A stretch of DNA of 64,000 nt from Microbacteriaceae bacterium (lineage in GTDB: Bacteria; Actinomycetota; Actinomycetes; Actinomycetales; Microbacteriaceae): contig CBFHZN010000003.1 of NCBI GenBank assembly GCA_965660355.1, positions 40,211-104,210 on the forward strand, in the 5' to 3' direction. The position numbers and the translations under genes were made by a program. This document shows positions 4,833-24,798 of this stretch, piece by piece. Each line of letters starts with the position of its first letter. Within the stretch, counting starts at the first letter, position 1. The notes beneath the pieces were generated by a model, which ran no database searches, had not been told where the DNA came from, and saw nothing but the letters and a program-made list of their open reading frames with translations.

Positions 4833-4850
4833 TTTTTATTTTGGGTTTTA

Positions 4851-4860
4851 TTATACATAT
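4851..4860 (-). promoter_or_regulatory. Variant of the 10-mer (TTATACATAT)
   Basis: One-mismatch copy 18 nt upstream of the ATG at 4832. The same variant occurs at 47064..47073. Confidence 0.3.
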
Positions 4861-4867
4861 TAGGAAT

Positions 4868-6619: not shown

Positions 6620-6632
6620 TTAGGGTGTTTTG

Positions 6633-6642
6633 TTATAAATAT
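6633..6642 (-). promoter_or_regulatory. Conserved 10-mer TTATAAATAT (plus)
   Basis: Exact copy 13 nt upstream of the sheath paralog 1 ATG. Confidence 0.45.
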
Positions 6643-6645
6643 TGC

Positions 6646-6909
6646 CTAAAGAGGGGATATTTCACCTGTGTTTGGGTCTATATTACAATCTCCATAAGTT
6701 TTAGAAAGGTTTTCTGAGAATGTTGTTTCGTCTTCTTTTAATTTTTCCATAAATTCTTCTGCTTGTTTTCTTCTTTCAGCAATTTGAAATTTTAGGATCT
6801 CGATTTGTCCTAACTCCATTGTTAGAGATTGAGAGCGTTGTTGGATATCTTTAAGGGTATCCATTTCCTCTTGTGTTAATTTTTTTGCTTCTGTTTGTAA
6901 ATTTTCCAT
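6646..6909 (-). CDS. Hypothetical coiled-coil protein
   Basis: 87 aa ORF with charged heptad-like sequence, preceded by the 10-mer. Confidence 0.5.
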   Translation of the reverse strand: MENLQTEAKKLTQEEMDTLKDIQQRSQSLTMELGQIEILKFQIAERRKQAEEFMEKLKEDETTFSENLSKTYGDCNIDPNTGEISPL

Positions 6910-6928: not shown

Positions 6929-6938
6929 TTATAAATAT
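6929..6938 (-). promoter_or_regulatory. Conserved 10-mer TTATAAATAT (plus)
   Basis: Exact copy 19 nt upstream of the ATG at 6909. Confidence 0.45.
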
Positions 6939-6943
6939 AATAA

Positions 6944-7447
6944 TTATTTTGATGTTTGCCAATCTTTTTGTAAGTCTAAGTATTTTTGTTGATCATCAGG
7001 GGTCATTTCCCACCACTTATCCATTTTCCAAACCCATCCCGTAAGTTGTGAGCATATAAGTCGTTTTGTTTCTAAATCCTCCCCATTAAATTTATATTTT
7101 TTTGTTATAAGCTTCCAGGGGATACGGAATATAAAAGTAAACAAATCATATTTTACTTTTCTTCCCACTATTGAAATTGCTCTTTTTGCTATGCTTTTAT
7201 ATTCTTGGGATGCATTGATATTTCTGTAGATTATATATTCATATCTCCACTTAGATTTCCACTCCTCTAGAGTATTTAATTCAACTCCTTTACGTTGCAT
7301 ATCAACAATATACATCCTACCCCAAATTTCTATAGCTATTGCAGTATGGGAATATTTTGAGTTTGTTGCTTTTCTAATTATGTTACTAAGTAAGCTATTC
7401 CTACTACATATTAGAATATCACCATGTTTTATTTTATTATCTTCCAT
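6944..7447 (-). CDS. Permuted papain-fold peptidase, YiiX/YaeF (C92)-like; candidate cell-wall hydrolase
   Basis: 167 aa. HGDILICSRNSLLSNIIRKATNSKYSHTAIAI ... KYDLFTFIF ... LICSQLTGWVW has the His-before-Cys order and spacing of the C92 family. Confidence 0.45.
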   Translation of the reverse strand: MEDNKIKHGDILICSRNSLLSNIIRKATNSKYSHTAIAIEIWGRMYIVDMQRKGVELNTLEEWKSKWRYEYIIYRNINASQEYKSIAKRAISIVGRKVKYDLFTFIFRIPWKLITKKYKFNGEDLETKRLICSQLTGWVWKMDKWWEMTPDDQQKYLDLQKDWQTSK

Positions 7448-7558
7448 ATTTGGTTTTTTAAATTTTACTCATTTCGGTATAAACACTTACATTGTCAGTT
7501 ACGGTAATACCTCCCAGGTAATATGTTTATTAAGTTTTGTATTAGTCCTATTTTAGTA

Positions 7559-7762
7559 TTATTTATTTATTTCAATCATCATCTTCATATGTTCTAACTC
7601 TTTCTCTTCTTTCCAATCAAGATATTCTTGTGGTTCTTCATCATACCACACCCAACCATCAATTTCTTTTTTATTATCTTCTGATAGTATATCTCCATTA
7701 GGTAATGTAATCATATTACCCCTTACCCACTTATCATTATTCTCTTCGTATTTATAAAACAT
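7559..7762 (-). CDS. Small conserved partner protein of LRR genes, copy 3
   Basis: 67 aa. Shares the (F/L)P(D/N)G.I(M/L).E(D/N)N..DG...(Y/W)..E.P.EY.(D/E)W pattern with 14130..14315 and 15797..15991, and sits directly downstream of an LRR gene. Confidence 0.6.
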   Translation of the reverse strand: MFYKYEENNDKWVRGNMITLPNGDILSEDNKKEIDGWVWYDEEPQEYLDWKEEKELEHMKMMIEINK

Positions 7763-7800
7763 AGTTTAATTTATTTTTTATAATATTAAGTTTATCTTAA

Positions 7801-9003
7801 TTATGTTACAACTGTCCATCCTTTAGCGGTTGCTATACTTGTATCACAACCAGCACTACCAGGCATTCCACTAACATCTATAGTCTGTGTTCCAGCAGCA
7901 GTTCCAAGTGATGTAAACAATTCATCTATTGCATCGGCAGTCATTTGATTACCACTTACATCAACACCAATGGTCAATCTATTCAATACAATTCTTTGAA
8001 GTGAACCAGTTGATAAGAACATACCAAGTGTATTATTAATATTAATACAATCAGTCATCACAACCTCTGGTAAACTTCTAGCATTTCTAAACATATATCT
8101 AGCATCTTCTAAAAGAGGCATATTAATTTCTCCTATACTATAAGGTCCATTGTTAACTGTACCACCAAAGAAATATAAACCAATTGTATTATTTAATGCA
8201 ATCACATCACCAATAGAATAATTATTAGCGTGTATAAAGAATGAATTTCCATTTGTTGTTGATGAACCAAGTGTCAAACGTCCTATCTTAAAGTTATCTG
8301 AATATCTAAAAACTGCATCACTTGTAGCATTATCAATACTTACATCTCCTAAATTTTGACCATATAAAGAAGTCCCATTAAAACCATCATCCCAATTAGA
8401 AACATCTATATTAAAGAAATTACTTGGTAATTCTAACTTTTTAAGTTTAGTCATATATCTAAAACATCTTAAATTACTACCCTCATTCGGTGATTTTAAA
8501 TATACGTGTTCACAAATATGAGCAATTGCTAATGTTGAAATATAAACTCTAGATGAACCAGAACCATCTGGATTACCATCTCCTAGATAACTAACTACTT
8601 CAAGTGCATTATGTGAATTCTCATCACCATCAACATAACATAAACAAGCTCTTGAACTCCCAGTATCTAATTCCATATCAACTTCAACAAGAACAGGTTT
8701 ATAATTTCTACCATCTTCTAATGTTAAAATAGGTACTCCTGTTATAGTAGAATAATCATATGTGTGTTGTATGTCAGGATAAGTTGTGCCACTTGCAGCA
8801 GTGCTTGTAGTACCATCGCCCCAATCAACTACAGAATCATTATTTAATGTAAACTTTAGAATATTCGGGTTATCCTCAATAACTGCAAATACAACATATA
8901 ATTTAGTTTCAGTACCATCATCTGCTGGAATTGCTGGCCATTGAGTATTTCTCTTCCAAATAAACTCTGGTCTTGCTTTAATATATCTTCCCACACTTCC
9001 CAT
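7801..9003 (-). CDS. BspA-type leucine-rich-repeat protein with PKD-like DWGDGT segment, paralog 3; putative receptor-binding/adhesin protein
   Basis: 400 aa. ..VVDWGDGTTSTAASG..HTYDYSTITG.. then repeated F..(C/A).SL..(I/V) units. Collinear with the C-terminal parts of 14317..15807 and 15984..18245. Confidence 0.6.
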   Translation of the reverse strand: MGSVGRYIKARPEFIWKRNTQWPAIPADDGTETKLYVVFAVIEDNPNILKFTLNNDSVVDWGDGTTSTAASGTTYPDIQHTYDYSTITGVPILTLEDGRNYKPVLVEVDMELDTGSSRACLCYVDGDENSHNALEVVSYLGDGNPDGSGSSRVYISTLAIAHICEHVYLKSPNEGSNLRCFRYMTKLKKLELPSNFFNIDVSNWDDGFNGTSLYGQNLGDVSIDNATSDAVFRYSDNFKIGRLTLGSSTTNGNSFFIHANNYSIGDVIALNNTIGLYFFGGTVNNGPYSIGEINMPLLEDARYMFRNARSLPEVVMTDCININNTLGMFLSTGSLQRIVLNRLTIGVDVSGNQMTADAIDELFTSLGTAAGTQTIDVSGMPGSAGCDTSIATAKGWTVVT

Positions 9004-9004
9004 A

Positions 9005-10525
9005 TTACTTCTCTATTTTTAATTTAATTACTGATGCCGTTGATACAGTTATTCCAATTTCATCTCCAAGTGATATAGAATTACCTAATGTATAAGCTGA
9101 ACCATTTATTGTTATTGTAGTTGTTGGGGCATTAACAATATTGTCTACTGCTGTTATACTAATAGCGTCATCAGCATATAATGTAGTTGATGTATCATCC
9201 ATTAAATCAATTGTCCATCTTTCTATTGCTACTGTTATTTCTCCATCTACATCTAATTTAGTTGATGGTGTTGAAGTTCCAATACCAACATCTCCATTGG
9301 GTTGTATTCTTACAACTTCTGTCGGGGTGGTATTGGAGGCCCAAAAGCTAAGACCGATTCTTGTATTACTACCGCCGTTATAAGGTCGTATTTCTGCATA
9401 ACTAGAAATAGACCCTGCATCTAATCGTATTCCATTTTCTCTAACGCTATTAATGGTAGTTGGCTCTGGTGGTGCATTTTCGATTCTTAGAATACCCTCG
9501 TCAATGTGGAGTTTATTTGTTGGAGAAGTTGTTCCAATACCTAAATTACCTTGAAAATAGCCATCACCAGCATCGTTAATATTAAAAATGGTTATATTAG
9601 ATTGATTATTAATTTTCATTGCATCTGTACTTGATGTGTTACCATTAGTTCTAATACCTAACATAGCACCCAATGATGGAATGCTAGGAAATGGTGAAAT
9701 GTTAAATCCTGCTGCACCTTTTACATAAGCACCAATACCACCACCAACAATTAAACCAATACCAACATTATTACTAATCCAAGTTATTGAATTATAACCA
9801 TTAACTAATCTTTTTATAGCAATACCACCATCACCAGTACTTACACCTTTTACTAAAAAATCACCATCATTAACGTGTAATTTATATGTTGGTGTTGTTG
9901 TTCCAATACCTATAAGACCATTATTTGTAGCGTTTAATAAAATATTCCCGTCACTACCCGAGAAATACCCTACACCTGTTTCTAAAACAATGTTTTTCCC
10001 CGAATTTTGAGATGGGGTTTGTTCGCTCAATCTACCGTTAGATGAAACTATTTTGGTTTCGTACCCCGGAAAATTTAGTGTTGAAGTAGTCGCACCTAAT
10101 GTTATTGTACCACCTATATAATTTGAAAATGAAAGTATTGGATAGTTTTCGCCACCTGTTCCGACTAATTTATCTGAATATATCCTAAATATTTTGTTAT
10201 TTACTTCATTCCTAAATTCTGCTTGTAAGTCAGCTGAATTTGAATTAAATTGAAAATACTGATAACCATTCGAAACTGGAAATCTAATATAACTATTTGA
10301 GTTTCCATTAATGTAATTACCCTGAGCAGAGTTTCCAGTTAAAGTAATATTATTTTCAAATATTTCTATTCTTTTGTTGCTGTCACCCATTCTAGTCATT
10401 GTTAGCTTACCATCAGCGTCAATATCTAGTATCTTCCCATTCTCGCTTTTAATCTCAAATATAGTTCCGCTAGTCAAATTACTAATCCAACTAATTGCTC
10501 CTTGTACTCGTTTTAAAAATCCCAT
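9005..10525 (-). CDS. Tail fibre-like protein with repeated GIGT..P..KL.(V/I) motifs
   Basis: 506 aa, Gly/Asn/Ser/Thr-rich. Three copies of the motif: GIGTTTPTYKLHVNDG, GIGTTSPTNKLHIDEG, GIGTSTPSTKLDVDGE. Confidence 0.6.
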   Translation of the reverse strand: MGFLKRVQGAISWISNLTSGTIFEIKSENGKILDIDADGKLTMTRMGDSNKRIEIFENNITLTGNSAQGNYINGNSNSYIRFPVSNGYQYFQFNSNSADLQAEFRNEVNNKIFRIYSDKLVGTGGENYPILSFSNYIGGTITLGATTSTLNFPGYETKIVSSNGRLSEQTPSQNSGKNIVLETGVGYFSGSDGNILLNATNNGLIGIGTTTPTYKLHVNDGDFLVKGVSTGDGGIAIKRLVNGYNSITWISNNVGIGLIVGGGIGAYVKGAAGFNISPFPSIPSLGAMLGIRTNGNTSSTDAMKINNQSNITIFNINDAGDGYFQGNLGIGTTSPTNKLHIDEGILRIENAPPEPTTINSVRENGIRLDAGSISSYAEIRPYNGGSNTRIGLSFWASNTTPTEVVRIQPNGDVGIGTSTPSTKLDVDGEITVAIERWTIDLMDDTSTTLYADDAISITAVDNIVNAPTTTITINGSAYTLGNSISLGDEIGITVSTASVIKLKIEK

Positions 10526-10528
10526 ATC

Positions 10529-11080
10529 TTAATCTTTTTGCTCAACAATTATTTTCCCTTCTAGATTCTGTTCTGTCATAACGTGTGGCATCATAATCTC
10601 AAAGTCAGATTTACCATTTTCATTAGGCGTTTGACTAATTGAACTATAATAAGCAGTGAAATACTTATCTCCTTTGAATATATGTTTTTCAGTTGATTGT
10701 GCGTTCAAACGCTGCTCCCTTGTGATGACTTCGGCAACGTCAATTAGATTATCACTAATTAAAACTTCATTCAGCCATTCAATGGGTATTAACATCCGAA
10801 TTGACTTGCTGTCAATTAACCAGTTTTGATTCTCTTCCTCAACTATAAAGTCAGTCAACTTTTCTTCGGCTAATTTAGCAAGACATTCATCGTGAATAGA
10901 TACTGTTTCGAAGAACTTGTCCGCTATCTGAAAGGTTGTGAACTTGTGAACTTCCGTTTTACTTGGCTCAATGTTATCAGACGCTAAATCGAACACATCG
11001 AATCCAACGTGATTGTTACTTGTGTTAATCTTAGTGATTATGACTTTTTGACCTGTTGTTTTATTGTATAAATTTTTCAT
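10529..11080 (-). CDS. Hypothetical protein between the fibre genes
   Basis: 183 aa ORF, closely spaced with its neighbours. No motif recognised. Confidence 0.5.
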   Translation of the reverse strand: MKNLYNKTTGQKVIITKINTSNNHVGFDVFDLASDNIEPSKTEVHKFTTFQIADKFFETVSIHDECLAKLAEEKLTDFIVEEENQNWLIDSKSIRMLIPIEWLNEVLISDNLIDVAEVITREQRLNAQSTEKHIFKGDKYFTAYYSSISQTPNENGKSDFEIMMPHVMTEQNLEGKIIVEQKD

Positions 11081-11091
11081 TTTCTTTTATA

Positions 11092-13359
11092 TTAATTTTC
11101 ATACACATCCCATTCTCTAGTAGTCAGAGAGTCGTCTGTCGCTGATGTTGTGTATTGCAGGTTTCTTACTACTGTATTGTTTGAATTTACTGTATTTTCA
11201 AAAGTTGTAGTTTTGCAGTCTGTGAAAGTGTTGTTGTTGCCTGAATTTGTAATGCCTGAATTGAAAATTGTGTTTTTAATATTACTAAAAGGATAATTAG
11301 AAAAATTAACAGGTTGGTTAAATATACATTTATCGACAATAAATAGGTTTTCTCCTGCATTAGTACTAGCTGTGACGAAACTAGTCGTTATATTAAAAAC
11401 ACAATTTTCAATAATTATTTCATCATTCCCGTTGAAACTAGTTATTATATTAGGTTGAGCAGTAATTGTAGAATTTCTTAATTTAAATTTTCTACTATTA
11501 TTAGGTCTATTAGTCAGACCTTTAAAAATTCCTCCATTATAGCTGCCGCCGTTAAATACAAGAAACTCTCCTTCTACATTTGCATAATAATCACTTTCAT
11601 GGTTTATTTCTATATTACCAGATAAAATATTAATACTTTTAATAACTTTAGCTCTTATTCGTGTATCTCCTCCGTCTATTGTAAGACCATCAATAACAAA
11701 ACTATTCGTTCCTATTCCTTCTATACATCTTTCTGTATTATTAGTAACTTTCATATAGCAATTACTAATATAAGCTTGTTGGCTTTGGTTGTATGTACCT
11801 ATAAATCTTGTAGCATTGATATTTCCTGTAGAAACAAAATAAGAATTTTTAATTATGAGACTAGACCTAGATAAATTATTAGTAGTGTTAATGAGATAAC
11901 AATTAGCTGTGTTAATTTGGCTATTTAGGTTGCAATTATCAAAAACTAAATTGATCTCACCAGTAATTCCTGGATTATGTAGTAAATTTGCGCCATTATT
12001 TCCTGGTGTATTGCTAGAGCCTATAATGTTACAACATCTAAATTCAACTTTTATAAATTTTTCGTTGTTATTATATGGTCCTGCTTCAATTTGATTAGTA
12101 CCTAAATTAATAGCATCTCCGTTACCTATTAAAAGAAACTCATTTTGGATAGAAGTGCTTTGCGTTTCAGTAATTTCTCCAACTTGTTTTAAGATGTATT
12201 TGCCATCAGCTACTGCTGCTTGAATAGACGTGTAATCTGCACCCGTTGTGCCTACTGTTGGAGGTACTATTCCTGTTAGTTGTGATCCATCTCCTTGAAA
12301 GGAGCCTGTAAAAGAACCAGAGAATGAACCCGTGTTGTGTGTTTGTTTGAATTCATCTAAATCAAAGTACACTGTACGATTTTCTGGTCTTACATACAAG
12401 ACACCTTGAGTAGGTGAATTTGACGCATTTAATACCTTCCCTATACGAATTGCTTTTATTGGGGGTGTTGGGATTATTGTGGTTGCTGATCCAGATACTG
12501 TTGAGGATAAATATAATTGATCATCTGTGTTAAATGATGTTAAATTTAGACCACGAGCTACACCATTCAACATGATGGCTCCAAAATTATTTACCCCTAT
12601 ATCTTGTAATACAACTCCAATAAAACATGAACAATCTGCACCAGAGGTTGCTATGGCTCTTTTTACACGAGGGGTTTGTCCTGTAGTGGTTGAGGTGAAA
12701 TCAACTATGGTGCCTTTGGTTAAAGTAACAGTATCGGCATTTCTTACACGAGCATACAAGGTTTGTCCCAACTCAATTGGGACATCATTTTCTATGTAAA
12801 ATGTAAATCGACCATCATCAAATGAATATCCTAAATCACCTTGTGTTCCTGTGAATGTGCCTTGTTGGGTAAATGATATTCTATCGGTTTGTAAAGAACC
12901 ACTTAATAATATTGCTTGTACTGTGTTTGTTACATCAATGCTCCCACTAACTGAAAGTGATCCTGTTATCTCAACATCACTATCACGTGTAATGGGATTA
13001 GAGCCTGACCATTTGGATGATATTAGGCCAGTTAACTGTGAACCATCCCCAATAAAACTACCTGTAAATGATCCGGTGTTATATATTTGTGTAAATGTTT
13101 CAAAGCTACCAGATAAAATATCTATACTAGAGCTGTTTGCAAGTATTCGTGTGTCAAATGATGAGCTATCCTGTACATATGAGGATGTAAAATCATTAAA
13201 TACTGTTAAAGGTGTATAGCTACCAGAGGCAGATGTTTGAGTTAAATATCCAACATCATTTACTAAAAGAGATATAAGGTTCCCCTCAAACAAAACTCCT
13301 TTAAATTTGGAGTTTTGCCATAAGTTATTATAGGTTCGTTTGGGGGTTTGTTCTGCCAT
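11092..13359 (-). CDS. Tail fibre / beta-helix-like structural protein
   Basis: 755 aa. Duplicated segment (YNTGSFTGSFIGDGSQLTGL and HNTGSFSGSFTGSFQGDGSQLTGI). Asn-rich C-terminal repeats resemble a right-handed beta-helix. Confidence 0.55.
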   Translation of the reverse strand: MAEQTPKRTYNNLWQNSKFKGVLFEGNLISLLVNDVGYLTQTSASGSYTPLTVFNDFTSSYVQDSSSFDTRILANSSSIDILSGSFETFTQIYNTGSFTGSFIGDGSQLTGLISSKWSGSNPITRDSDVEITGSLSVSGSIDVTNTVQAILLSGSLQTDRISFTQQGTFTGTQGDLGYSFDDGRFTFYIENDVPIELGQTLYARVRNADTVTLTKGTIVDFTSTTTGQTPRVKRAIATSGADCSCFIGVVLQDIGVNNFGAIMLNGVARGLNLTSFNTDDQLYLSSTVSGSATTIIPTPPIKAIRIGKVLNASNSPTQGVLYVRPENRTVYFDLDEFKQTHNTGSFSGSFTGSFQGDGSQLTGIVPPTVGTTGADYTSIQAAVADGKYILKQVGEITETQSTSIQNEFLLIGNGDAINLGTNQIEAGPYNNNEKFIKVEFRCCNIIGSSNTPGNNGANLLHNPGITGEINLVFDNCNLNSQINTANCYLINTTNNLSRSSLIIKNSYFVSTGNINATRFIGTYNQSQQAYISNCYMKVTNNTERCIEGIGTNSFVIDGLTIDGGDTRIRAKVIKSINILSGNIEINHESDYYANVEGEFLVFNGGSYNGGIFKGLTNRPNNSRKFKLRNSTITAQPNIITSFNGNDEIIIENCVFNITTSFVTASTNAGENLFIVDKCIFNQPVNFSNYPFSNIKNTIFNSGITNSGNNNTFTDCKTTTFENTVNSNNTVVRNLQYTTSATDDSLTTREWDVYEN

Positions 13360-13507
13360 CTATATTAAAAATGAGTTTGATTATATGGTGTTTTCTTGAT
13401 AGGTATTAAAATCATTACCTATTTCAATCTTGGTTAATGTATCAATAATTTTGGTTTCTTTTGTTTCTAACATCCCACTATTACTGTATATACGTCCATG
13501 TTTTCTT

Positions 13508-14119
13508 TCATAGTTTAAACTTTTCTTCAAAATATTTATGTTTTCCTTTTTTCTTGTCTCGTTTGTTTTTTACAATCATTTGAATTGTGTAGCTAATTGA
13601 TTTAATTGAAAAATTAAGTGGTTGAGGTCTATAATTATCTATTAAAATAAACCGAAAAACTTCTGAAAGAAAAGCAGAACCAGAACCAAAAAACATAGCA
13701 GGAACAACGTATGAGTCACGTTTTCCGTGCCTTGACATTTTAAGCATCAAATCAGACATTTTGTAAGTCAAAGCAGTTCCGAATGTCCCTTCAGCTACTC
13801 CGTAATATGACCATGCTATGTCTTGGTAGGAGAAAAGTCCATTTTGTTTAAAATTGTAGTCGTATATTTCTTTTCCTACAATTGGTAAAGTTGATGCTAC
13901 TGTTGTCCTTAATGCTGCACGCCAATAATTAACGTTGTTGTCAATCATATAAGTAGTGCCAAACACACCCATTCCAAAGCCAACTAACTCATGCTTTTGT
14001 TTATCTTTACCATAACTCCAAGAGTCTTTTAAACCCTCCTGAGCGTTAACTGTTGTAGATAAAATTGCGATAATAAAAATTAACTTTTTCATAATTATTT
14101 GTTTTAAGTTTGGGGACAA
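13508..14119 (-). CDS. Secreted/membrane protein inside the receptor-binding cluster (DUF2279/YfiM-like is a weak guess)
   Basis: Likely start at M10 (14092): MKKLIFIIAILSTTVNAQ is a signal peptide. Later hydrophobic segments and a basic C-terminus. Confidence 0.5.
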   Translation of the reverse strand: MSPNLKQIIMKKLIFIIAILSTTVNAQEGLKDSWSYGKDKQKHELVGFGMGVFGTTYMIDNNVNYWRAALRTTVASTLPIVGKEIYDYNFKQNGLFSYQDIAWSYYGVAEGTFGTALTYKMSDLMLKMSRHGKRDSYVVPAMFFGSGSAFLSEVFRFILIDNYRPQPLNFSIKSISYTIQMIVKNKRDKKKGKHKYFEEKFKL

Positions 14120-14129
14120 TATACGAAAA

Positions 14130-14315
14130 TTAAGTTAATTCCTCGTTTTGCTCTTTCCAATCTAAGTACTTTTGCGGAGGTGTTTCTGCGTAAAAATACC
14201 CGTCACGTTCAAAATCGTGGTTATCTTCATCCATTATTTGACCGTCGGGAAATATCAACTTTGATACATTTTCCCACGTTCCGTCTTCTTTCTCTCTGTA
14301 TATTTTCTTTTCCAT
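14130..14315 (-). CDS. Small conserved partner protein of LRR genes, copy 2
   Basis: 61 aa. ..IFPDGQIMDEDNHDFERDGYFYAETPPQKYLDWKE. Its start lies 1 nt after the upstream LRR gene stop. Confidence 0.65.
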   Translation of the reverse strand: MEKKIYREKEDGTWENVSKLIFPDGQIMDEDNHDFERDGYFYAETPPQKYLDWKEQNEELT

Positions 14316-14316
14316 A

Positions 14317-15807
14317 TTATGCGTATGCTATTGTGTATCCCTTACCAGTTGCTATTCCTGTTGGCTCGCCACTTGTGAAAGCTGGCAGTGTTATTGTTTG
14401 CGCTCCTGATGCTGTACCAAGTGAATCGAATAAATCTTGCAAGTTTTGCCCTGTGATTTGAGTCTCTTTAATATCAAAACCCACTGTGATACCTGTTAAT
14501 AATAATCTTTTCAGTGAAAAACAATCTGTGAACGCTGCAAATGTGTTTGTCACTCCTGACATATCGCCCAAAAATTCTATTTTTCTAACGCTTTCACACC
14601 TATTAAATGTCGTGCTAAGCCTAGTTAATGATGATCCTACTGTTATCGTTCCTATTTCAGTTAGTACTTTATTTCCTATAAACATCTGAAGCAAATCAGT
14701 TGCCATTGGAGCGTATATATTACCCACTTTTCTAATTCTGCTATTTCTGAACATCTGATTAAGGTTGCCTGAGTTTACATTAGAAAAAGTTAGATTTCCT
14801 ATTTCACTTATAGCTGATGTATCAAAGGCACGACCTCCTGCTGTTTGGTCTGAATTTATATTTATAGGATTCCCGTTTAAATCTCTAACATTTCCCAAAG
14901 CTGTAAAGGCATCTATTAAACTGCCCATTGGATAAGTAGAGGAATCGTAATCAAAAATACGTAAATTTGACATACCTTGATTTACAGCGTTAAACTGACC
15001 TATATCCCCCGTAATAACTAAACGCTCCAATAATCTACATTTATATCTTGCCGTAACTGATGGTTGAAATACTAATCCGCTTATGCCTGTTGTGTCTAAT
15101 CTAATATCTAGCCAGTTCTGAGTTCTTTCATTAACCCCTGTCGTTGGGCTTGTTATTTCTGAAATAAATAATTGAGTAATATTACTAGGTAAATCAATTT
15201 GAACGATAACCATTTTGTAATTAAAACCATTACCGTCAACTAAAACAGGGCTTGTTATTGTTGCATAGTCGTAAACGTGGTTTTCTGTTCCTGTGCTTGT
15301 GACCGTTGTGCCGTCACCCCAATCAATTAAACTTGCTGTGCCGTTCTTATTAATAGCGACTGCATTAAATCCATTCTCATAAACCGCAAACAAACCATAA
15401 AAAACATTATCCCCAGCCGTTACCGTTGGCATATCTAACCAATCTGGATTTCTTGTCCACCATCCTTGATCTGGTGTTATATCCAAATTAACATCATCCC
15501 CACTAACACTATCAACTGTTATTGCGTTACCGTCAGCGTCTAGTAGATTAAAGTTCTTTGAACCGCCTGAAGGAATTGAAGCAGTTACTTCGTTGGTGTT
15601 GATTGTTGCTGTGGCGGCAGGCGCTGCAATTTCCAAATCATTACCTGCCAGCGTGTTGTTTGTAGCTATTGGATTTCCATCTGTATCTACAGTCGAAACA
15701 CTTAAAGTATCGCCACTCGCAACCGTACCTAGGTTGGTGGAGTTGACGTCTATTGTTACTTTAGGACATTTTAACTTCCTTATAGTTATAGTTTTATTAG
15801 AACTCAT
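14317..15807 (-). CDS. BspA-type LRR protein with PKD-like segment, paralog 2; putative receptor-binding protein
   Basis: 496 aa. GWWTRNPDWLDMPTV..IDWGDGTTVTSTG..HVYDYATIT.. then LRR units (MFRNSRIRKVGNI, TFNRCESVRKIEF, AFTDCFSLKRLLL). The C-terminal 48 aa are nearly identical to those of 15984..18245. Confidence 0.65.
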   Translation of the reverse strand: MSSNKTITIRKLKCPKVTIDVNSTNLGTVASGDTLSVSTVDTDGNPIATNNTLAGNDLEIAAPAATATINTNEVTASIPSGGSKNFNLLDADGNAITVDSVSGDDVNLDITPDQGWWTRNPDWLDMPTVTAGDNVFYGLFAVYENGFNAVAINKNGTASLIDWGDGTTVTSTGTENHVYDYATITSPVLVDGNGFNYKMVIVQIDLPSNITQLFISEITSPTTGVNERTQNWLDIRLDTTGISGLVFQPSVTARYKCRLLERLVITGDIGQFNAVNQGMSNLRIFDYDSSTYPMGSLIDAFTALGNVRDLNGNPININSDQTAGGRAFDTSAISEIGNLTFSNVNSGNLNQMFRNSRIRKVGNIYAPMATDLLQMFIGNKVLTEIGTITVGSSLTRLSTTFNRCESVRKIEFLGDMSGVTNTFAAFTDCFSLKRLLLTGITVGFDIKETQITGQNLQDLFDSLGTASGAQTITLPAFTSGEPTGIATGKGYTIAYA

Positions 15808-15991
15808 AATTTTCTATATTTTCTTGATTTTCCAACCATTCAGTATATTCCGTTGGTGGCTCTTCTGACCAAAAGAAACCATCTCTTGCAAAGTCGTGGT
15901 TATTTTCATCCATGATTTGACCATCAGGAAACACAACTTTTGTATAATTTCCCCAATTTCCGTGTTCGTCTATTCTGTATATTTTATGCAT
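15797..15991 (-). CDS. Small conserved partner protein of LRR genes, copy 1
   Basis: 64 aa. ..VFPDGQIMDENNHDFARDGFFWSEEPPTEYTEW. Overlaps both flanking LRR genes (by 8 and 11 nt). Confidence 0.65.
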   Translation of the reverse strand: MHKIYRIDEHGNWGNYTKVVFPDGQIMDENNHDFARDGFFWSEEPPTEYTEWLENQENIENYEF

Positions 15992-18245
15992 ATGCTATTG
16001 TATATCCTTTTCCTGTTGCTATTCCTGTTGGCTCTCCACTTGTAAAGTTAGGTAGTGTTATTGTTTGTGTTCCATTTGCTATACCAATTGAATCAAATAA
16101 ATCTTGTAAGTTTTGTCCTGTGATTTGTGACCATCTTATGTCGAAGCCTACTGTAATGTTGGGGAGGATTAAGCGTCTTAGGGAGTTACACTCTTGAAAT
16201 GTTTGGTTAGTATTATTTACCCCCGACATATCTCCTGCAAAAATAATTTCTTTTAAACTAAACGCTCTAAAAAATGCTAGGGATAAATTTAAAAGAGACA
16301 CTCCAACTGTAATTGTGCCTATTGAATATAATTTATAACAGAAATAGAAAGCCCCGTCTAATTGAGTTGCACTTGGAATGTTAATATCACCTATTTCTTG
16401 AATATTACTATTTATGAAAAACATTCTTCTTTGACTTTCACCTAATAAATCAGTGATATTTCCTACTTTAGAAATTAAAGTTTCTTGAAATGCAAACTGC
16501 TGACCAGATGAAGGTCCTGATATTGTTTGAGCATTAATACTTACAGGTGTGCCATTTGCGTCTGCCCTAAAATCATTAAAAGAACCAAACTCAGTCCTTA
16601 TCTGATTAAACCAATTATAATCTACAACTTTTAAATTAGGGCATAATTTTGCATTACGCAACCTTACTAAATCCCCTATAATATTTATTCGCTCCAAATA
16701 ATTCATCCTATATTGATTATTATTCGATGCATCAAAACTCAAGTTAAAAATTCTTGTACTGCTAATAGCTACATCCAACCAATTTTGAGGTCTTAAATTT
16801 GTTCCTGTTGTGGGTGTTGTGGTTCTATCTATTTGAACTAGAAGAGTAGTACTATCAAAGTCAAACTCAACCATCACTTGCTTATAATTCCTACCATCGT
16901 CTGAAACTAATACAGCACCCGAAATAGTTGAATAGTCGTAAACATGGTTGTACGTTTGATTTGCACCACTTCCTGAATCAGTCGCACCATCGCCCCAATC
17001 AATAGAATGATTGCCACCACTCAATAAGATAGCCACCGCATTAAAATCATCCTCAAAAACCGCATACAACCCCGCAAACTTGTTATCCCCCTCGTTTATA
17101 GTTGGCATTGGTAACCATCCCTCAGGACGTTCCCACCAAACTTTAGGGCAAAAACTTTCCAACTCTATAACTTGATCTGACATTGCTGGGAAAGTGAGGG
17201 TATCTAATACATTACCATCCTCATCTTCAATAACATAGTTAATATCGTTAAGTTCTCCAGTTGCTCCTGAGAATATAGATTGACTGAATGAGTTGTCTGA
17301 GTTAATTACGGTTGCTGGGCGACATACTGGGGCAGGTAAGGGAGGGGTTGAGGGTGGTGTTGGAGAGAGGTTATCAATTTCTACACCAAATGTTAATTTT
17401 GATTTACTGTTGTATTTTTTAATGGAGTTTAAATCCTTTTGCACCACATCAGGAACTATATATCCATTTATCTTTAAGGTAAATGTACTTCGTACTACTC
17501 TGTTTGTCCCTTGATTTAACTCATTGGTTGTAGCAAATGAATCAATGCGTGCTTTAAACTTAAAACGTTCAGGATCGCCCCAGTATGAATCAGATGCATA
17601 ATTAATTGATTCAACGATTTTATTCAGTTGTTCCACATAGTATGTTTGCACTATGAAGCTATATGTTAATGTAACATAATCAGGAACAACATTTGCTATA
17701 AATTGCTTATTGGGAACTCTATTATTTAAAACATCAAAATTGGAATATGAATTCTTTTTATTATATGCTGTTTGCCAAAAAGTATATAAATGAGGATCAT
17801 TAGCATCTAACTTTCTTGTAATGCTTCTATTTTTGGTGATATCATCCCTCTTGAATACCGCGATAGGCATCATCAATTTCCCATTTTTATCCCTTATGAT
17901 ACCATCTTTTTGAATTGCTTTAAAACGCTCAGGAGAACCATATACCAAAGGTACTGGGATTCTTTCCCCATTTTGAATTACAAATGGTTTTATAACATTT
18001 TCAAAATAGTATAGTACTGCCTCATCAACATCTTGCAGATTAACCGAAAATGGTTTATGAGTATCCCCTGTATGGGATAATTTTTCTGCTCTATTGTGGT
18101 CTACTCCCTTTTGTGATTTGGGTGTAAATTGTCTAAAATCTATAGAAGGATCAACACCCTCTCCGGTTTCCGGATTTGAGTAAGGGTTTATCAAATTATT
18201 TGATATTTCCTTTTGAGATTTTGGTGTTGGTTTTTTATTTGCCAT
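15984..18245 (-). CDS. Fusion protein: T4 gp15-like tail completion/neck-proximal domain (N-terminal about 290 aa), Pro-rich linker, and BspA-type LRR domain
   Basis: 753 aa. The N-terminal part (..IPVPLVYGSPERFKAI.., ..TLTYSFIVQTYYVEQLNKIVE.., ..TFTLKINGYIVP) resembles gp15 and follows the gp13/gp14-like genes. Linker PTPPSTPPLPAP. The C-terminal 450 aa is collinear with 14317..15807. Confidence 0.55.
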   Translation of the reverse strand: MANKKPTPKSQKEISNNLINPYSNPETGEGVDPSIDFRQFTPKSQKGVDHNRAEKLSHTGDTHKPFSVNLQDVDEAVLYYFENVIKPFVIQNGERIPVPLVYGSPERFKAIQKDGIIRDKNGKLMMPIAVFKRDDITKNRSITRKLDANDPHLYTFWQTAYNKKNSYSNFDVLNNRVPNKQFIANVVPDYVTLTYSFIVQTYYVEQLNKIVESINYASDSYWGDPERFKFKARIDSFATTNELNQGTNRVVRSTFTLKINGYIVPDVVQKDLNSIKKYNSKSKLTFGVEIDNLSPTPPSTPPLPAPVCRPATVINSDNSFSQSIFSGATGELNDINYVIEDEDGNVLDTLTFPAMSDQVIELESFCPKVWWERPEGWLPMPTINEGDNKFAGLYAVFEDDFNAVAILLSGGNHSIDWGDGATDSGSGANQTYNHVYDYSTISGAVLVSDDGRNYKQVMVEFDFDSTTLLVQIDRTTTPTTGTNLRPQNWLDVAISSTRIFNLSFDASNNNQYRMNYLERINIIGDLVRLRNAKLCPNLKVVDYNWFNQIRTEFGSFNDFRADANGTPVSINAQTISGPSSGQQFAFQETLISKVGNITDLLGESQRRMFFINSNIQEIGDINIPSATQLDGAFYFCYKLYSIGTITVGVSLLNLSLAFFRAFSLKEIIFAGDMSGVNNTNQTFQECNSLRRLILPNITVGFDIRWSQITGQNLQDLFDSIGIANGTQTITLPNFTSGEPTGIATGKGYTIAYA

Positions 18246-18757
18246 TATAATCTTTCTCTAGTGATTTGTACTTTATCCGCAGGAACATAAATAGTTTTAC
18301 AAATTATAGATACACTTGTACCAAAACCATCTAATCCTGGATTTAATGGGTTGGGTTCATATGGGAATGCAGGGTTTTTACCAGCAAAGAATTGGTTAGC
18401 ATTTGTGGATTCTACCTCATAATATCCTTCATTATACATTATGATATCTCCTACCTCAGGTACTAATTGTGCATCAACTAAATCATCCCTAAAGAATTTA
18501 TATGTTATACCCCATTGAAAATCAACCCCATTTAAATCATCAGTTGGGAATTCTTGTGCATCTCTTTGTATTAAAGCATTTAATATAACGGGCTCAAAGT
18601 AATGTCTTGCTCCAGAGGCTTCCCCATACATGTTTACTTTAGTTTCATTTAATTTTAACTTATAGTATACACATTGTTGGGTGATTATATCCCACATCAA
18701 CTCACGGTTGATTCCTCTAAATAATGAGATGTCGCGTTTTCCGCCAAAGAGAGCCAT
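18245..18757 (-). CDS. Neck protein, T4 gp14-like
   Basis: 170 aa, between the gp13-like and gp15-like genes. ..GDIIMYNEGYYEVES.. is reminiscent of gp14. The call is mainly synteny-based. Confidence 0.45.
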   Translation of the reverse strand: MALFGGKRDISLFRGINRELMWDIITQQCVYYKLKLNETKVNMYGEASGARHYFEPVILNALIQRDAQEFPTDDLNGVDFQWGITYKFFRDDLVDAQLVPEVGDIIMYNEGYYEVESTNANQFFAGKNPAFPYEPNPLNPGLDGFGTSVSIICKTIYVPADKVQITRERL

Positions 18758-20391: not shown

Positions 20392-21090
20392 TTAACTTCT
20401 AAAAGTTTTATAAACATCCAAAATTGAATCAACTATTGTGTGTCTGTGGTTTTTTTCTAAAGTGGTTAAATTAAACCCCTCTATTGAGGACATATGCCGG
20501 CACATGAAATCAAAACCAGAATCTTTTTTATATTTTAAGTCAATTTGGGCATTATCACCACAAAATATTACTTTTGAGCCTTTACATATTCTTGTCAATA
20601 TGAGTTCGGTTTGGGTATCTGTTAGATTTTGTGATTCATCAACTACAACTAAACAATCAGTAAAGTTTCTACCTCTCATAAAAGAAATAGGTACTATCTC
20701 AATTAACCCATCTTCAATGCACTTTTCTATTTTTACTTTGTTATATAAACGGTGCATATTTTCATACACTGGGGCTGTAAAAGGGGCTAATTTCTCATTG
20801 ATATCACCGGGTAAAAAGCCAATATCCTCACCTGCTACTACAGTTGGACGTGTGATAATTATCTTTTCTATTTCTTTTCGGAATAGTAAATCTAAAGCTA
20901 TATTGGCTGCTAAAAGGGATTTACCTGATCCTGCTTTGCCTTTTAAAACTGATACGGTATTATTTAATACTTCGGCCTTGGCAAGTTTTTGCTCTTCATT
21001 TAATTGAAGTTTGAATTTTATTGGACCTTTTGGTTTACGTTTCCCTTTAAAAGTTTCTTGTGCCTCTGGGGTTCTATTAAAATCTGTCAT
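20392..21090 (-). CDS. phoH: PhoH-like ATPase
   Basis: 232 aa. Walker A GKAGSGKSLLA, Walker B VVVDESQN, then ..FCGDNAQIDL.. as in the PhoH family. Confidence 0.85.
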   Translation of the reverse strand: MTDFNRTPEAQETFKGKRKPKGPIKFKLQLNEEQKLAKAEVLNNTVSVLKGKAGSGKSLLAANIALDLLFRKEIEKIIITRPTVVAGEDIGFLPGDINEKLAPFTAPVYENMHRLYNKVKIEKCIEDGLIEIVPISFMRGRNFTDCLVVVDESQNLTDTQTELILTRICKGSKVIFCGDNAQIDLKYKKDSGFDFMCRHMSSIEGFNLTTLEKNHRHTIVDSILDVYKTFRS

Positions 21091-21179: not shown

Positions 21180-22817
21180 TTATAGAGAAGCTAAATTATT
21201 TACAAAGATACGACCGTAAAATTCAGGTCTGATCATTTTCTTCGCGTAACGAGTAAGTAACCCTTTACGTGGAGTAAATGAGTCTGGATCGTATACAAGT
21301 GGTGTCATGATTAATGGCACATATGGAGAGAATACAGCTCCTGTTTCCAAGAATTGATTTCCTCTATAACCCATTAATATAACATTTTCTGTCATGTATG
21401 GGTTCTTGTATACTTGGTAACGGTTGTTTAGGTTACCTGATTTTTGGATACCAAATGCGTAGTTCATTTTTGTAGCCTCACCATCAGAAGTTGCTGCGAA
21501 TCCAGGGATTGATTCTAATACAGTAGATACTGAAGGAGATACTACCATGAAGTTTGCACCACCTCTAAGAGTCTTTTGGTGAATCTTATTTGATACTTTT
21601 TGCATTTTAGTTCCTAAAGTTTGGAACCATTGACCTTGAGTATTAAAATACCCTAAATCATCTTCCCAAGCGGTTCTAGTATCATTTAAGTAGTTGTTAG
21701 ATTTAACTGACCAATATTCATCAGAAGCTGATGCGTCTTTAATCAACATATCAAGGTTTTCTAAGTCAATCTCTAAAGAGATATACTCACTCATGATATT
21801 TGTTAATTCAGCTTCTGCATCTAATGATTGGTAAGCATTTAAATCTTGTGCAAACTCAGGAGTCCATTGTGTTTTTAACTTACGTGTTTTAGCCACGATA
21901 GCCTCTGATTTCATTTTGATATCAATCTCTGGGATTGCTATATCACTTGCGGATTGTGCATTTGGGAAACCTGCACCATTGTTATCTTCAAAATCACCAC
22001 GAGCATTATCTGCTGGTTGAACATTGTAGAATAGGTCTGCTGTTCCTGTGATTGATGAACCTGACTCAAATACAAATATTACTGTACCTGGAGCTCCAAC
22101 TGTAGTGTATTCTGGGAGAATATTTGCTGGGTTTACATCTGATCCACTGATAGAGAATGCTCTAACACCTTTTAAATCAGCATTAGATGGCAAATCTACT
22201 GTAACTGCTGTTAAATCACCTGCTGCTATTGAAGCTGATAATTCAGCATCATAGTTTACTTGTGACCAATCAGCTGATGCTGATGTGAATGATGACCCTG
22301 TGCTAAATTGGTTAATTGAGTACGCAAATCTACCTGCTCCATATAAACCTCCTGTTGGGTCGTTTGCAGCACCTGGGTTTGTGTCTCCATATAATGAATC
22401 ACCACCATCGTATACGTTTCCTGATCCACCTCCAAAGTTTAATTGTTTGTTTTGACCAAACTGGAAGTCAAGGAAAAATACAAGACCTGAAGGTAAGTTC
22501 ATTGGTTGAACTGACATAAATTCTTTAGTAGATAAGTTACCAAATACTTTACGCACCATTGGTAGAGCTACACCAGCCCACTGTTCACCTTGTCCTACTT
22601 GGAAAGTACCACCACCAATATTTGTAGCAGAAGCCTCAGTTACAAGTTGTTTTGCTTGATTTTCTAGAATAAGTGCCATATTGTTACGGTTGATCTCTGT
22701 ATCAAGACCCTCTAACAATCCTGTCTTATTCCACTTTGCTGCTACTCTAGCAGCATCACTCTGCTTATTTTTCCATTCGGAAGCAGAGTCATTAAGTAAT
22801 GAATTAATTGTTGACAT
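21180..22817 (-). CDS. Major capsid protein, T4 gp23-like
   Basis: 545 aa. KWNKTGLLEGL..ILENQAKQL, ..PMVRKVFGNL..SVQPMN.PSG.VF.., and ..AKTRKLKTQWTPEFAQDLNAY..DAEAEL..EI.. match recalled gp23-family blocks. Confidence 0.9.
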   Translation of the reverse strand: MSTINSLLNDSASEWKNKQSDAARVAAKWNKTGLLEGLDTEINRNNMALILENQAKQLVTEASATNIGGGTFQVGQGEQWAGVALPMVRKVFGNLSTKEFMSVQPMNLPSGLVFFLDFQFGQNKQLNFGGGSGNVYDGGDSLYGDTNPGAANDPTGGLYGAGRFAYSINQFSTGSSFTSASADWSQVNYDAELSASIAAGDLTAVTVDLPSNADLKGVRAFSISGSDVNPANILPEYTTVGAPGTVIFVFESGSSITGTADLFYNVQPADNARGDFEDNNGAGFPNAQSASDIAIPEIDIKMKSEAIVAKTRKLKTQWTPEFAQDLNAYQSLDAEAELTNIMSEYISLEIDLENLDMLIKDASASDEYWSVKSNNYLNDTRTAWEDDLGYFNTQGQWFQTLGTKMQKVSNKIHQKTLRGGANFMVVSPSVSTVLESIPGFAATSDGEATKMNYAFGIQKSGNLNNRYQVYKNPYMTENVILMGYRGNQFLETGAVFSPYVPLIMTPLVYDPDSFTPRKGLLTRYAKKMIRPEFYGRIFVNNLASL

Positions 22818-24165: not shown

Positions 24166-24798
24166 TTATAATATAGGACATGATCCTTTAGCACATAGTA
24201 TTTCTGTTATTAATGCATTTGTGCGGGCATATTTATGTAAGAATGTAGATTGGGATTCGTTTAGTTGGCCGTTCTTCATCCATGAATTAGGGTTGGATGG
24301 GTTAGAAACTAAATCCCATGTTAACAATTCAAAATCATCTTGTACCTCCATTACCTCACCCATTTGCTTTAATGAGCCCATTCCACGTGAGGAAACTCCT
24401 AATGTTAACCCATTTCGAATTAAAGCACCAGCAATGCGACCTGCATCTGTACCTAGGGGTCCTGGATCTGCAAATATTTCTATGGTTCCCATTATGTTAT
24501 CTCCATCCCACCAAAGTTTACGTATAGCATGGGAGGAGTTTTGGAGGTTGATTATTTGGGATTCTGGGTGGTCTAGTTCTCCACAGGTTTCAGTAGATTT
24601 TTGGGATATTTTTTCATTGAATTTTTTTAATTCTCTTTCCCATAAATCTCTTTTATAGTATCTACCGTTACCATTTTTTACCTCAACTGTTGCTAATATA
24701 CCCTCAACAATTATGTTACCACCACTTTTTATCCCCTCTGCTAATTGGATGGGGTTTGGGTGGAACTTTTGGGTTTCTATTAAAAATTCTTTTTCCAT
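24166..24798 (-). CDS. Prohead core protease, T4 gp21-like (peptidase U9/S77 family)
   Basis: 210 aa. FLIETQ.., ..EVKNGNGRYY.., GELDHP, KLWWDG, and GVSSRGMGSL mirror recalled gp21 blocks (LLIET, GELNHP, MWWKG, GVSSRGLGSL). Confidence 0.85.
   Translation of the reverse strand: MEKEFLIETQKFHPNPIQLAEGIKSGGNIIVEGILATVEVKNGNGRYYKRDLWERELKKFNEKISQKSTETCGELDHPESQIINLQNSSHAIRKLWWDGDNIMGTIEIFADPGPLGTDAGRIAGALIRNGLTLGVSSRGMGSLKQMGEVMEVQDDFELLTWDLVSNPSNPNSWMKNGQLNESQSTFLHKYARTNALITEILCAKGSCPIL

Follow-up and report, generated by a model that had tools for sequence, protein, structure and literature searches.

A T4 gp15-family tail terminator fused to a BspA-type leucine-rich repeat module in a T4-like phage contig

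The window analysed here, the whole 64,000-nucleotide (nt) stretch at positions 40,211 to 104,210 of contig CBFHZN010000003.1 (C3:40211-104210 in our numbering; the contig measures 114.8 kb), is the late-gene block of a T4-like phage, with every late gene on the minus strand. This report concerns one of these genes, a single uninterrupted open reading frame (ORF) of 753 amino acids (aa; protein P0001) at 15984..18245 on the minus strand; the chance origin of a 2.26-kb open frame in DNA of 32% G+C is far from credible. A first-pass annotation, which gave no strand, had read the same frame as a gp15-like N-terminal domain joined by a Pro-rich linker to a leucine-rich repeat (LRR) module paralogous to free-standing LRR proteins nearby, and had suggested comparing the N-terminal domain with gp15 structures. 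The frame is intact and, as set out below, gp15 was the top match in that comparison by both profile and fold, and the linker, the paralogy and the LRR assignment all hold.

Residues ~63-291 are confirmed, at the level of family profiles and predicted fold, as belonging to the T4 gp15 tail-terminator family, an identity to which profile matches, the predicted fold and the place of the gene behind a gp13 homologue all point. The gp15-like blocks of the protein are IPVPLVYGSPERFKAI at 96-111, TLTYSFIVQTYYVEQLNKIVE at 192-212 and TFTLKINGYIVP at 254-265. When a 34-member family profile (A1) was searched against the PDB, its two best matches were T4 gp15 (E 0.011-0.014), with IPVPLVYGSPERF aligned onto gp15 25-49 and VVPDYVTLTYSFIVQTYYVEQLNKIVE onto gp15 102-138; hhalign of the family against T4 gp15 gave a probability of 90.8% and E 1.2e-6, placing residues 187-270 on gp15 110-205 and pairing the third block, TFTLKINGYIVP, with LTFEVNGWMYPP of T4 gp15. 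The Pfam family PF16724 (T4-gp15_tss) is matched by 5/34 family members (best E 4.4e-7), and P0216, 55% identical in the N-domain, reaches 33.9 bits against a gathering score of 25. An AlphaFold2 model of residues 1-300 has a mean predicted local distance difference test score (pLDDT) of 73.7, with a core at 81-93, a stretch at 150-190 scoring 56-70 and low values over the first 60 residues. Foldseek ranked the in-situ structure of T4 gp15 first for this model (9mkb, E 3.2e-9); ranks 1-6 are all T4 gp15, in situ and in crystal forms (E 3e-9 to 8e-7), and later matches include the terminators of P1, Pam3, A-1(L), Bas63, T5 and 812. A phmmer search of P0001 itself against the PDB returned a lone Argonaute match, which we judged to be chance. 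The Lys/Pro-rich segment that precedes the core is conserved in P0002-P0005 and has no counterpart in T4 gp15.

Gene order leads to the same family. The arrangement gp23-PhoH-x-gp13-x-fusion gene-...-sheath is shared with Microcystis phage Mel-JY01, Flavobacterium phage vB_FspM_immuto (the nearest cultured relative, 49% identical over residues 4-289), the metagenomic contig L004 and contig L010. Mel-JY01 carries capsid, PhoH, a 376-aa ORF, a 174-aa ORF, a 333-aa homologue of the N-domain, a 104-aa ORF, sheath and tube, and L004 carries a partial 126-aa ORF, a 294-aa homologue and an 87-aa ORF, then the sheath. Apart from the fusion gene the 114.8-kb contig has no gp15 homologue, and the complete genomes of immuto and Mel-JY01 contain one each. 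Two upstream genes had been called gp13-like and gp14-like in the first-pass annotation: the former call is supported by similarity (table), and the ortholog of this 383-aa protein in L010 matches PF26809 (Phage_T4_gp13), whereas the latter stands by position only, the 170-aa ORF having no detectable similarity to T4 gp14 (BLASTP at chance level). A PHROG search of this ORF, of the 150-aa ORF that comes after PhoH and of the 61-67-aa ORFs described below gave no matches.

In T4 in situ the gp15 hexamer sits atop the tail, its upper loops contacting gp14; myophage terminators, that of T4 among them, pair through their C-terminal segment with the uppermost ring of the sheath, and in some of these phages a single strand is enough (PMC12929629). 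The hhalign register puts the end of the core near residue 270, and the conserved segment ~272-291 (...KSKLTFGVEI, the conserved terminator end at residues 281-291) is, by its position, a candidate sheath-capping strand, a role modelled on T4 and XM1 (PMC12929629). Minimal relatives of 294-298 aa stop a few residues past this segment, so everything needed for termination should lie before residue ~292; the rest of the chain would thus have to exit the ring. That remainder begins with the Pro-rich linker (PTPPSTPPLPAP at 295-306) and a ~55-aa spacer (ATVINSDNSF...), two copies of which open the 496-aa LRR paralog. The spacer also follows the gp15 domain in the long relatives P0346, P0347, P0348 and P0212 (for example CAPGTVINSDSTYNNSV in P0347, P0348 and P0212). 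The junction contains no Met, no TATAAATA-type (T4 late-promoter) element and no frame break, and separate expression of the LRR part was rejected for want of an internal late-promoter motif of T4 type and of a junction Met. An apparent sharing of the last 60 residues of the gp15 domain with the 496-aa paralog proved to be a spurious local alignment, true similarity starting at residue 311.

The C-terminal ~440 aa are paralogous to two free-standing LRR proteins of the window: residues 318-753 are 46% identical to the 496-aa ORF (E 5e-109) and residues 367-751 are 29% identical to the 400-aa ORF (E 7e-30), and the whole assembly holds just these three copies of the module. The module is confirmed as BspA/DUF285-type, at profile and fold level and not by a curated cut-off. 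Of its 88 relatives in a large protein collection, the more remote contain PF03382 (DUF285) and PF13306 (LRR_5), and a number of them bear the name 'surface protein'; in the PDB, a profile of 65 of these relatives (A2) matched 4fs7 (E 8e-13) and 4gt6 (E 2e-12) ahead of many generic LRR proteins. In an AlphaFold2 model of residues 296-753 (mean pLDDT 84.3, predicted template modelling score 0.79), a weakly predicted spacer is followed by a sandwich of seven strands (~389-471), by further strands spaced 21-28 residues apart between 489 and 693 and by a helical/strand cap. Foldseek placed this model closest to 4fs7 in the PDB (E 2.4e-3, probability 0.97, low TM) and to phage proteins in BFVD (E down to 1.6e-16), the latter named 'bacterial surface protein 26-residue repeat', 'leucine rich repeat 5', 'PKD domain-containing' and 'BspA family LRR surface protein'. 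The sandwich is called PKD-like from these BFVD matches to PKD-domain phage proteins and from the motifs IDWGDG and H.YDYS, which are conserved in A2; it has no Pfam match. In the solenoid, an F..C..L..I motif marks four C-terminal turns, starting at residues 609, 633, 658 and 683. Over the last 48 codons (15984-16130 and 14317-14460, minus strand) the fusion gene and the 496-aa paralog are much closer to each other (table) than upstream, where they are only ~40-50% identical (~50% in nt), and the partner ORFs behind them are similar as well; this suggests from sequence comparison either recombination or gene conversion at the 3' end of the cassette or a constrained interface with the partner protein described next.

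Every one of the three LRR genes in the window precedes an ORF of 61-67 aa, and the three small ORFs are clearly homologous, with the common motif FPDGQIMDE.NHDF.RDG. The same partner follows LRR homologues on two unrelated phage contigs, L008 and L009, and the partners align. L008 has a siphovirus-type tail-tip layout (tape measure, 566-aa ORF, 70-aa ORF, 954-aa ORF, 763-aa LRR protein, 60-aa partner), the three ORFs before the LRR gene being tail-tip genes, and in L009 a decoration protein, a capsid protein and two small ORFs come before a 687-aa LRR protein, a 60-aa partner and the lysis genes. By its context the LRR gene of L009 is the large tail gene, in this case of a small phage. Judged from gene context, the LRR module thus appears to occupy receptor-binding-protein positions in other phages. 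Other LRR proteins of ~700 aa have N-terminal anchors that fall in PHROGs of unknown function, and no gp15 domain was found in these or in the L008 and L009 proteins. It is proposed that the partner is a folding or assembly helper.

Features of the fusion gene and its surroundings (coordinates in the window; -, minus strand)
Feature	Coordinates	Strand	Basis or remark
Fusion, residues 1-62, Lys/Pro-rich segment	18060..18245	-	predicted disordered, pLDDT 47-62
Fusion, residues 63-291, gp15-family terminator core and short C-terminal strand segment	17373..18059	-	profile, fold and Pfam evidence
Fusion, residues 292-310, Pro-rich linker	17316..17372	-	homology to short relatives ends ~nt 17388
Fusion, residues 311-365, small beta spacer	17151..17315	-	low to moderate pLDDT
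Fusion, residues 366-475, PKD-like beta-sandwich	16821..17150	-	W.R...W..P, IDWGDG, H.YDYS motifs; seven strands pLDDT >90
Fusion, residues 476-705, BspA/DUF285-type LRR solenoid	16131..16820	-	~9 turns of 21-28 aa
Fusion, residues 706-753, C-terminal cap	15987..16130	-	87% aa / 83% nt identical to end of 496-aa paralog
Partner ORF, 64 aa	15797..15991	-	overlaps stop of fusion gene
Free-standing LRR paralog, 496 aa	14317..15807	-	second cassette, 14130..15807
Partner ORF, 61 aa	14130..14315	-	second cassette
Free-standing LRR paralog, 400 aa	7801..9003	-	third cassette, 7559..9003
Partner ORF, 67 aa	7559..7762	-	third cassette
Hypervariable island, 10.45 kb	6935..17387	.	blastn against L003 and L004; ORF comparison
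Large terminase	29640..31238	-	late-gene block
Portal	27748..29628	-	late-gene block
Prohead protease	24166..24798	-	late-gene block
gp23-type capsid protein	21180..22817	-	late-gene block
PhoH	20392..21090	-	late-gene block; 150-aa ORF comes after
gp13-like neck protein, 383 aa	18759..19910	-	phmmer against PDB gp13, E 7.6e-5; phrog_211
170-aa ORF at gp14 position	18245..18757	-	position kept in L010, Mel-JY01 and L004
87-aa ORF	6646..6909	-	conserved right flank of island (flank 3099..6909)
Tail-sheath paralog 1	4868..6619	-	conserved right flank of island
Tail-sheath paralog 2	3099..4832	-	conserved right flank of island

A hypervariable island opens with the LRR part of the fusion gene. 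DNA similarity stops at nt 17388 against L004 (88% identity before) and at nt 17380 against a second relative, L003 (90%), that is, at about codon 286-288, so the left edge of the island lies inside the terminator gene; similarity restarts at nt 6934-6939, just before the 87-aa ORF. The minimal relative L004 has no island, and L003 carries in the same place a 6.2-kb island of unrelated genes together with a terminator that has a 125-aa extension. Since the 3' end of the terminator gene is the left border of the island, the LRR head was presumably acquired by recombination. Fibre- and adhesin-like genes fill ~9 kb after the fusion gene, among them fibre- or spike-like genes of 755 and 506 aa. 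In the 755-aa ORF (11092..13359), whose product resembles a beta-helix spike in its C-terminal half, a ~130-nt patch (12955-13085, minus strand) encodes the fibre motif ...NTGSFTGSFIGDGSQLTGL..., of which the protein has two copies. Two genes of the L003 island that are otherwise unrelated contain patches with 89-92% DNA identity to this one, and one of the two has two shorter matches (~82-83%) elsewhere; the patch may serve as a common anchor or as a site at which fibre heads are exchanged by recombination. The interval from the last LRR cassette to the sheath genes contains a 167-aa ORF (6944-7447, minus strand) that matches PHROG 1128, annotated as enoyl-CoA hydratase-like (E 3e-12).

The two full-length sheath paralogs that follow in tandem (3099-6619, minus strand; 583 and 577 aa) are ~52% identical to each other, and the pair also occurs in L003 at 80-82% identity. 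The TATAAATA element has 31 copies in the window against ~19.5 expected, and many plus-strand copies adjoin the boundaries of minus-strand genes (intergenic examples at 2485, 3074, 6634, 20381, 21106, 33036, 43033, 52532, 55000 and 62778); the coding strand at these boundary sites reads TATTTATA, which is not the orientation of a T4 late promoter. The phage contig has a G+C content of 31.6%, whereas the other large contigs of its 1.69-Mb bin have 43-48% and the mean over all contigs is 47.7%; it was probably mis-binned with an unrelated bacterium. The bin is therefore uninformative about the host, and a host taken from it was rejected.

The fusion is real, and it does not stand alone: variable C-terminal heads are common throughout this gp15 clade, and the LRR module is one of them. 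The gp15-like family comprises 6,396 clusters at 90% identity in the length range searched, many of them from Tara and other marine samples. Extensions were surveyed in 121 representatives (of clusters at 50% identity) whose sequences reach past the end of the N-domain; essentially none is present in 21/121 (~17%), 54/121 have one of 100-160 aa and 29/121 (about a quarter) one longer than 160 aa. Extensions of at least 60 aa form 29 similarity clusters in all, and most of those of 100-160 aa fall into a single cluster of 59 extensions. The sole terminator of immuto carries a 148-aa extension of this common type, for which no Pfam family or solved structure was matched (~125-148 aa; P0002, P0003, immuto gp213 and others). 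Its consensus reads ...YLNTN...F.FFVNG....S....G......D...LGY.L...DEV...GKF, and it could be a sheath-decorating or binding domain. Heads of recognisable type are Lcl_C (P0215, P0352), YadA head repeats (P0248), Gly_rich_2 (P0347) and DUF285 (P0355). A metagenomic protein of 735 aa, P0209, has two complete gp15-like domains in tandem (7-294 and 354-603) and a 130-aa tail.

A junction-spanning search with residues 200-500 returned no second copy of the exact fusion, and independent assemblies supplied two more fusions of the gp15::LRR type. P0345 (720 aa, seven member sequences) is 71% identical in the N-domain and carries a PKD-like plus LRR module of the same family (26% identity, E 1e-18) with no spacer. 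P0355 (929 aa) is 50% identical in the N-domain, which is followed by several spacers and a strong DUF285 match (286 bits). Its 126.5-kb contig, from another study, is a close parallel to the window, with protease, gp23, PhoH, a 140-aa ORF, gp13 (PF26809), a 173-aa ORF and the fusion gene in this order and a free-standing DUF285 paralog further downstream.

We consider it probable that the fusion gene encodes a chimeric virion protein, a terminator ring bearing six LRR adhesin heads at the neck-sheath junction. By analogy with T4, six terminator copies would form a ring that caps tube and sheath and docks to the neck. After the capping strand the chain would continue into the Pro-rich linker, the beta spacer, the PKD-like sandwich and the LRR solenoid, so that six 20-residue linkers, spacers and ~390-aa sandwich-LRR heads would surround the neck-sheath junction as a crown in which each of the six heads is an LRR monomer on a flexible stalk. 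The heads, gained by recombination at the island border in the terminator gene, could act as an extra, exchangeable adhesin for the first, reversible contact with the host surface, and the small partner would aid the folding or assembly of each head. In phage Goslar a separate collar protein (gp126) rings the tail terminator and bears filaments, which makes the outer surface of the ring a known docking site. An accessory adhesin role is favoured because the module sits at apparent receptor-binding positions elsewhere, because the island also holds fibre-like genes and because adhesin-type heads are swapped in relatives. A wider reading, which we put forward tentatively, is that throughout this abundant marine T4-like clade, the hosts of which are probably Bacteroidota, the terminator might be a modular display scaffold and the neck crown a true host-range determinant; the exchangeable heads would then possibly comprise BspA/DUF285 LRR, Lcl_C, YadA-like and Gly-rich heads and the common 125-aa domain.

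Several observations weigh against the proposed adhesin crown. P0001 alone has no Pfam match at E<=0.01 and no PHROG match, and its LRR_5 score is below gathering (13.5 bits vs 27.7, E 0.068); the gp15 and LRR assignments rely on profiles, transitive matches and predicted folds, and TM-scores to gp15 are low (0.39-0.57). The contig is an incomplete genome, which leaves room for a second, plain terminator gene. Presence in the virion, full length there and binding are predictions from the genes, and the outward path of the chain is assumed, as the terminator strand pairs with the inner sheath. LRR domains are also able to mediate protein-protein contacts inside the virion. Taken together, the alternatives to the adhesin crown hold a substantial minority of the probability. 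In one of them, which we regard as unlikely, the heads stand at the neck and serve the virion itself, holding or sensing fibres, binding the free LRR paralogs or bracing sheath, neck or capsid. LRR folds are general protein-protein interaction modules, the fibre-like proteins of the island (755 and 506 aa) need an attachment site, and T4 fibritin at the neck aids fibre attachment and senses the environment (T4 annotation; Goslar discussion). However, the same module and partner occupy receptor-binding positions in other morphotypes that lack these fibres, and the head is the most variable part of the protein, swapped in relatives for Lcl_C, a YadA head or DUF285, as is typical of host-facing and not of internal parts.

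It is less likely still that the heads are general stickiness domains for particles, algal or mucus polymers and other non-host surfaces, which would increase encounters with no role in host range, as has been proposed for Ig-like capsid decorations. A position far from the baseplate, from which contraction would not be triggered directly, fits such a function, as does the small 125-aa domain of unknown fold that is all most family members carry; a dedicated partner gene, service as a tail-tip protein elsewhere and a place inside a hypervariable island with fibre genes do not. That the N-domain is instead a paralogous tube-fold anchor, for example at the baseplate, with the LRR heads at the distal end of the tail, seems very improbable. 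The fold of terminators has relatives among tube and baseplate-hub proteins, and a few weak Foldseek matches at ranks 30-42 are indeed baseplate chains, but terminators are the best matches by far, the Pfam family is specific to gp15, the gene occupies the gp15 position after gp13, and neither the contig nor the complete genomes of relatives contain a further gp15 homologue. Least credible of all is an artefact, either misassembly or an error that erased a stop or frameshift between a ~295-aa terminator and an LRR gene. The exact protein occurs once, on one contig, in a collection of 5.8 billion proteins, and close relatives (90% identity) are 294- or 419-aa versions; against this, 463 codons of AT-rich DNA past the junction are free of stops, the linker there is of a typical Pro-rich kind, the spacer behind it recurs after the gp15 domain of P0346, P0347, P0348 and P0212, the junction has no Met or promoter-like element, and two further gp15::LRR fusions come from other samples, one of them (P0355) parallel in synteny.

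Each component of the fusion has known counterparts. With T4 gp15 (PF16724; PDB 4HUD, 4HUH, 9MKB) it shares the family, by profile and fold, and the position after gp13/gp14, and gp15 blocks 25-49, 110-138 and 190-201 correspond to residues 84-108, 187-215 and 255-266 of the fusion. It differs in an extra 60-aa N-terminal segment, in a 460-aa extension of linker, spacer, PKD-like and LRR parts and in the end of the terminator itself, which is a 64-residue sheath-binding domain in the 272-aa T4 gp15 and a short strand segment here. BspA-type LRR proteins (PF13306, PF03382; 4FS7, 4GT6) share the ~24-26-aa repeats, the F..C..L..I motif and the predicted solenoid; the fusion differs from them in its PKD-like cap, conserved C-terminal cap and dedicated partner gene, and in that its LRR part is attached to a tail terminator in place of a signal peptide or a fibre shaft. 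Pairs of a tail-fibre gene and a downstream assembly or chaperone gene are found in T4 (gp37/gp38), lambda (stf/tfa) and Mu (S/U). The LRR-partner pair resembles these in having a small conserved ORF directly behind the gene of a large binding protein and in moving between phages as a unit. It differs in its 61-67-aa partner, for which no similarity to a known family was detected.

In contractile-tailed phages host recognition is normally credited to baseplate fibres, and structures at the neck, for example the whiskers of T4 and the collar of Goslar, consist of proteins of their own with a poorly understood role. The fibritin (wac) whiskers of T4 and the gp126 collar filaments of Goslar are, like the proposed crown, myovirus appendages at the level of the neck or terminator. 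However, fibritin is a trimeric coiled coil and the Goslar filaments are an array of dimers, both separate and non-covalent, whereas the appendage described here would be a monomeric LRR head that is the covalent C-terminus of the terminator, and it has no sequence relation to fibritin; PDB searches with the fusion protein or its profiles gave no fibritin matches. Some tail terminators do bear additional domains, for example PVC16 (PMC11784142), but the extra domains of the terminators in that review bind the sheath or duplicate the terminator fold and are not swappable adhesin-type heads. The accessible literature yielded neither a description of a terminator fused to an adhesin nor a functional study in which BspA-type LRR proteins serve phages as receptor-binding proteins, which is weak evidence in both cases, many subscription papers being out of reach.

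If the proposal is true, this would be a neck-borne receptor-binding device of a myovirus, encoded within the terminator, and the LRR-partner cassette would be a new type of portable receptor-binding unit. Should hosts be bound by the heads, predictions of host range for these marine phages would need to take in the neck, and the cultured relative, Flavobacterium phage immuto, renders the question testable. The terminator itself bears the appendage, and the same module appears at receptor-binding positions in other phages. The gp15 terminator, the BspA LRR, neck appendages and fibre-chaperone pairs are all of known kinds; what is new is the combination of these and a host-recognition island whose border lies inside the terminator gene across a large clade of marine phages.

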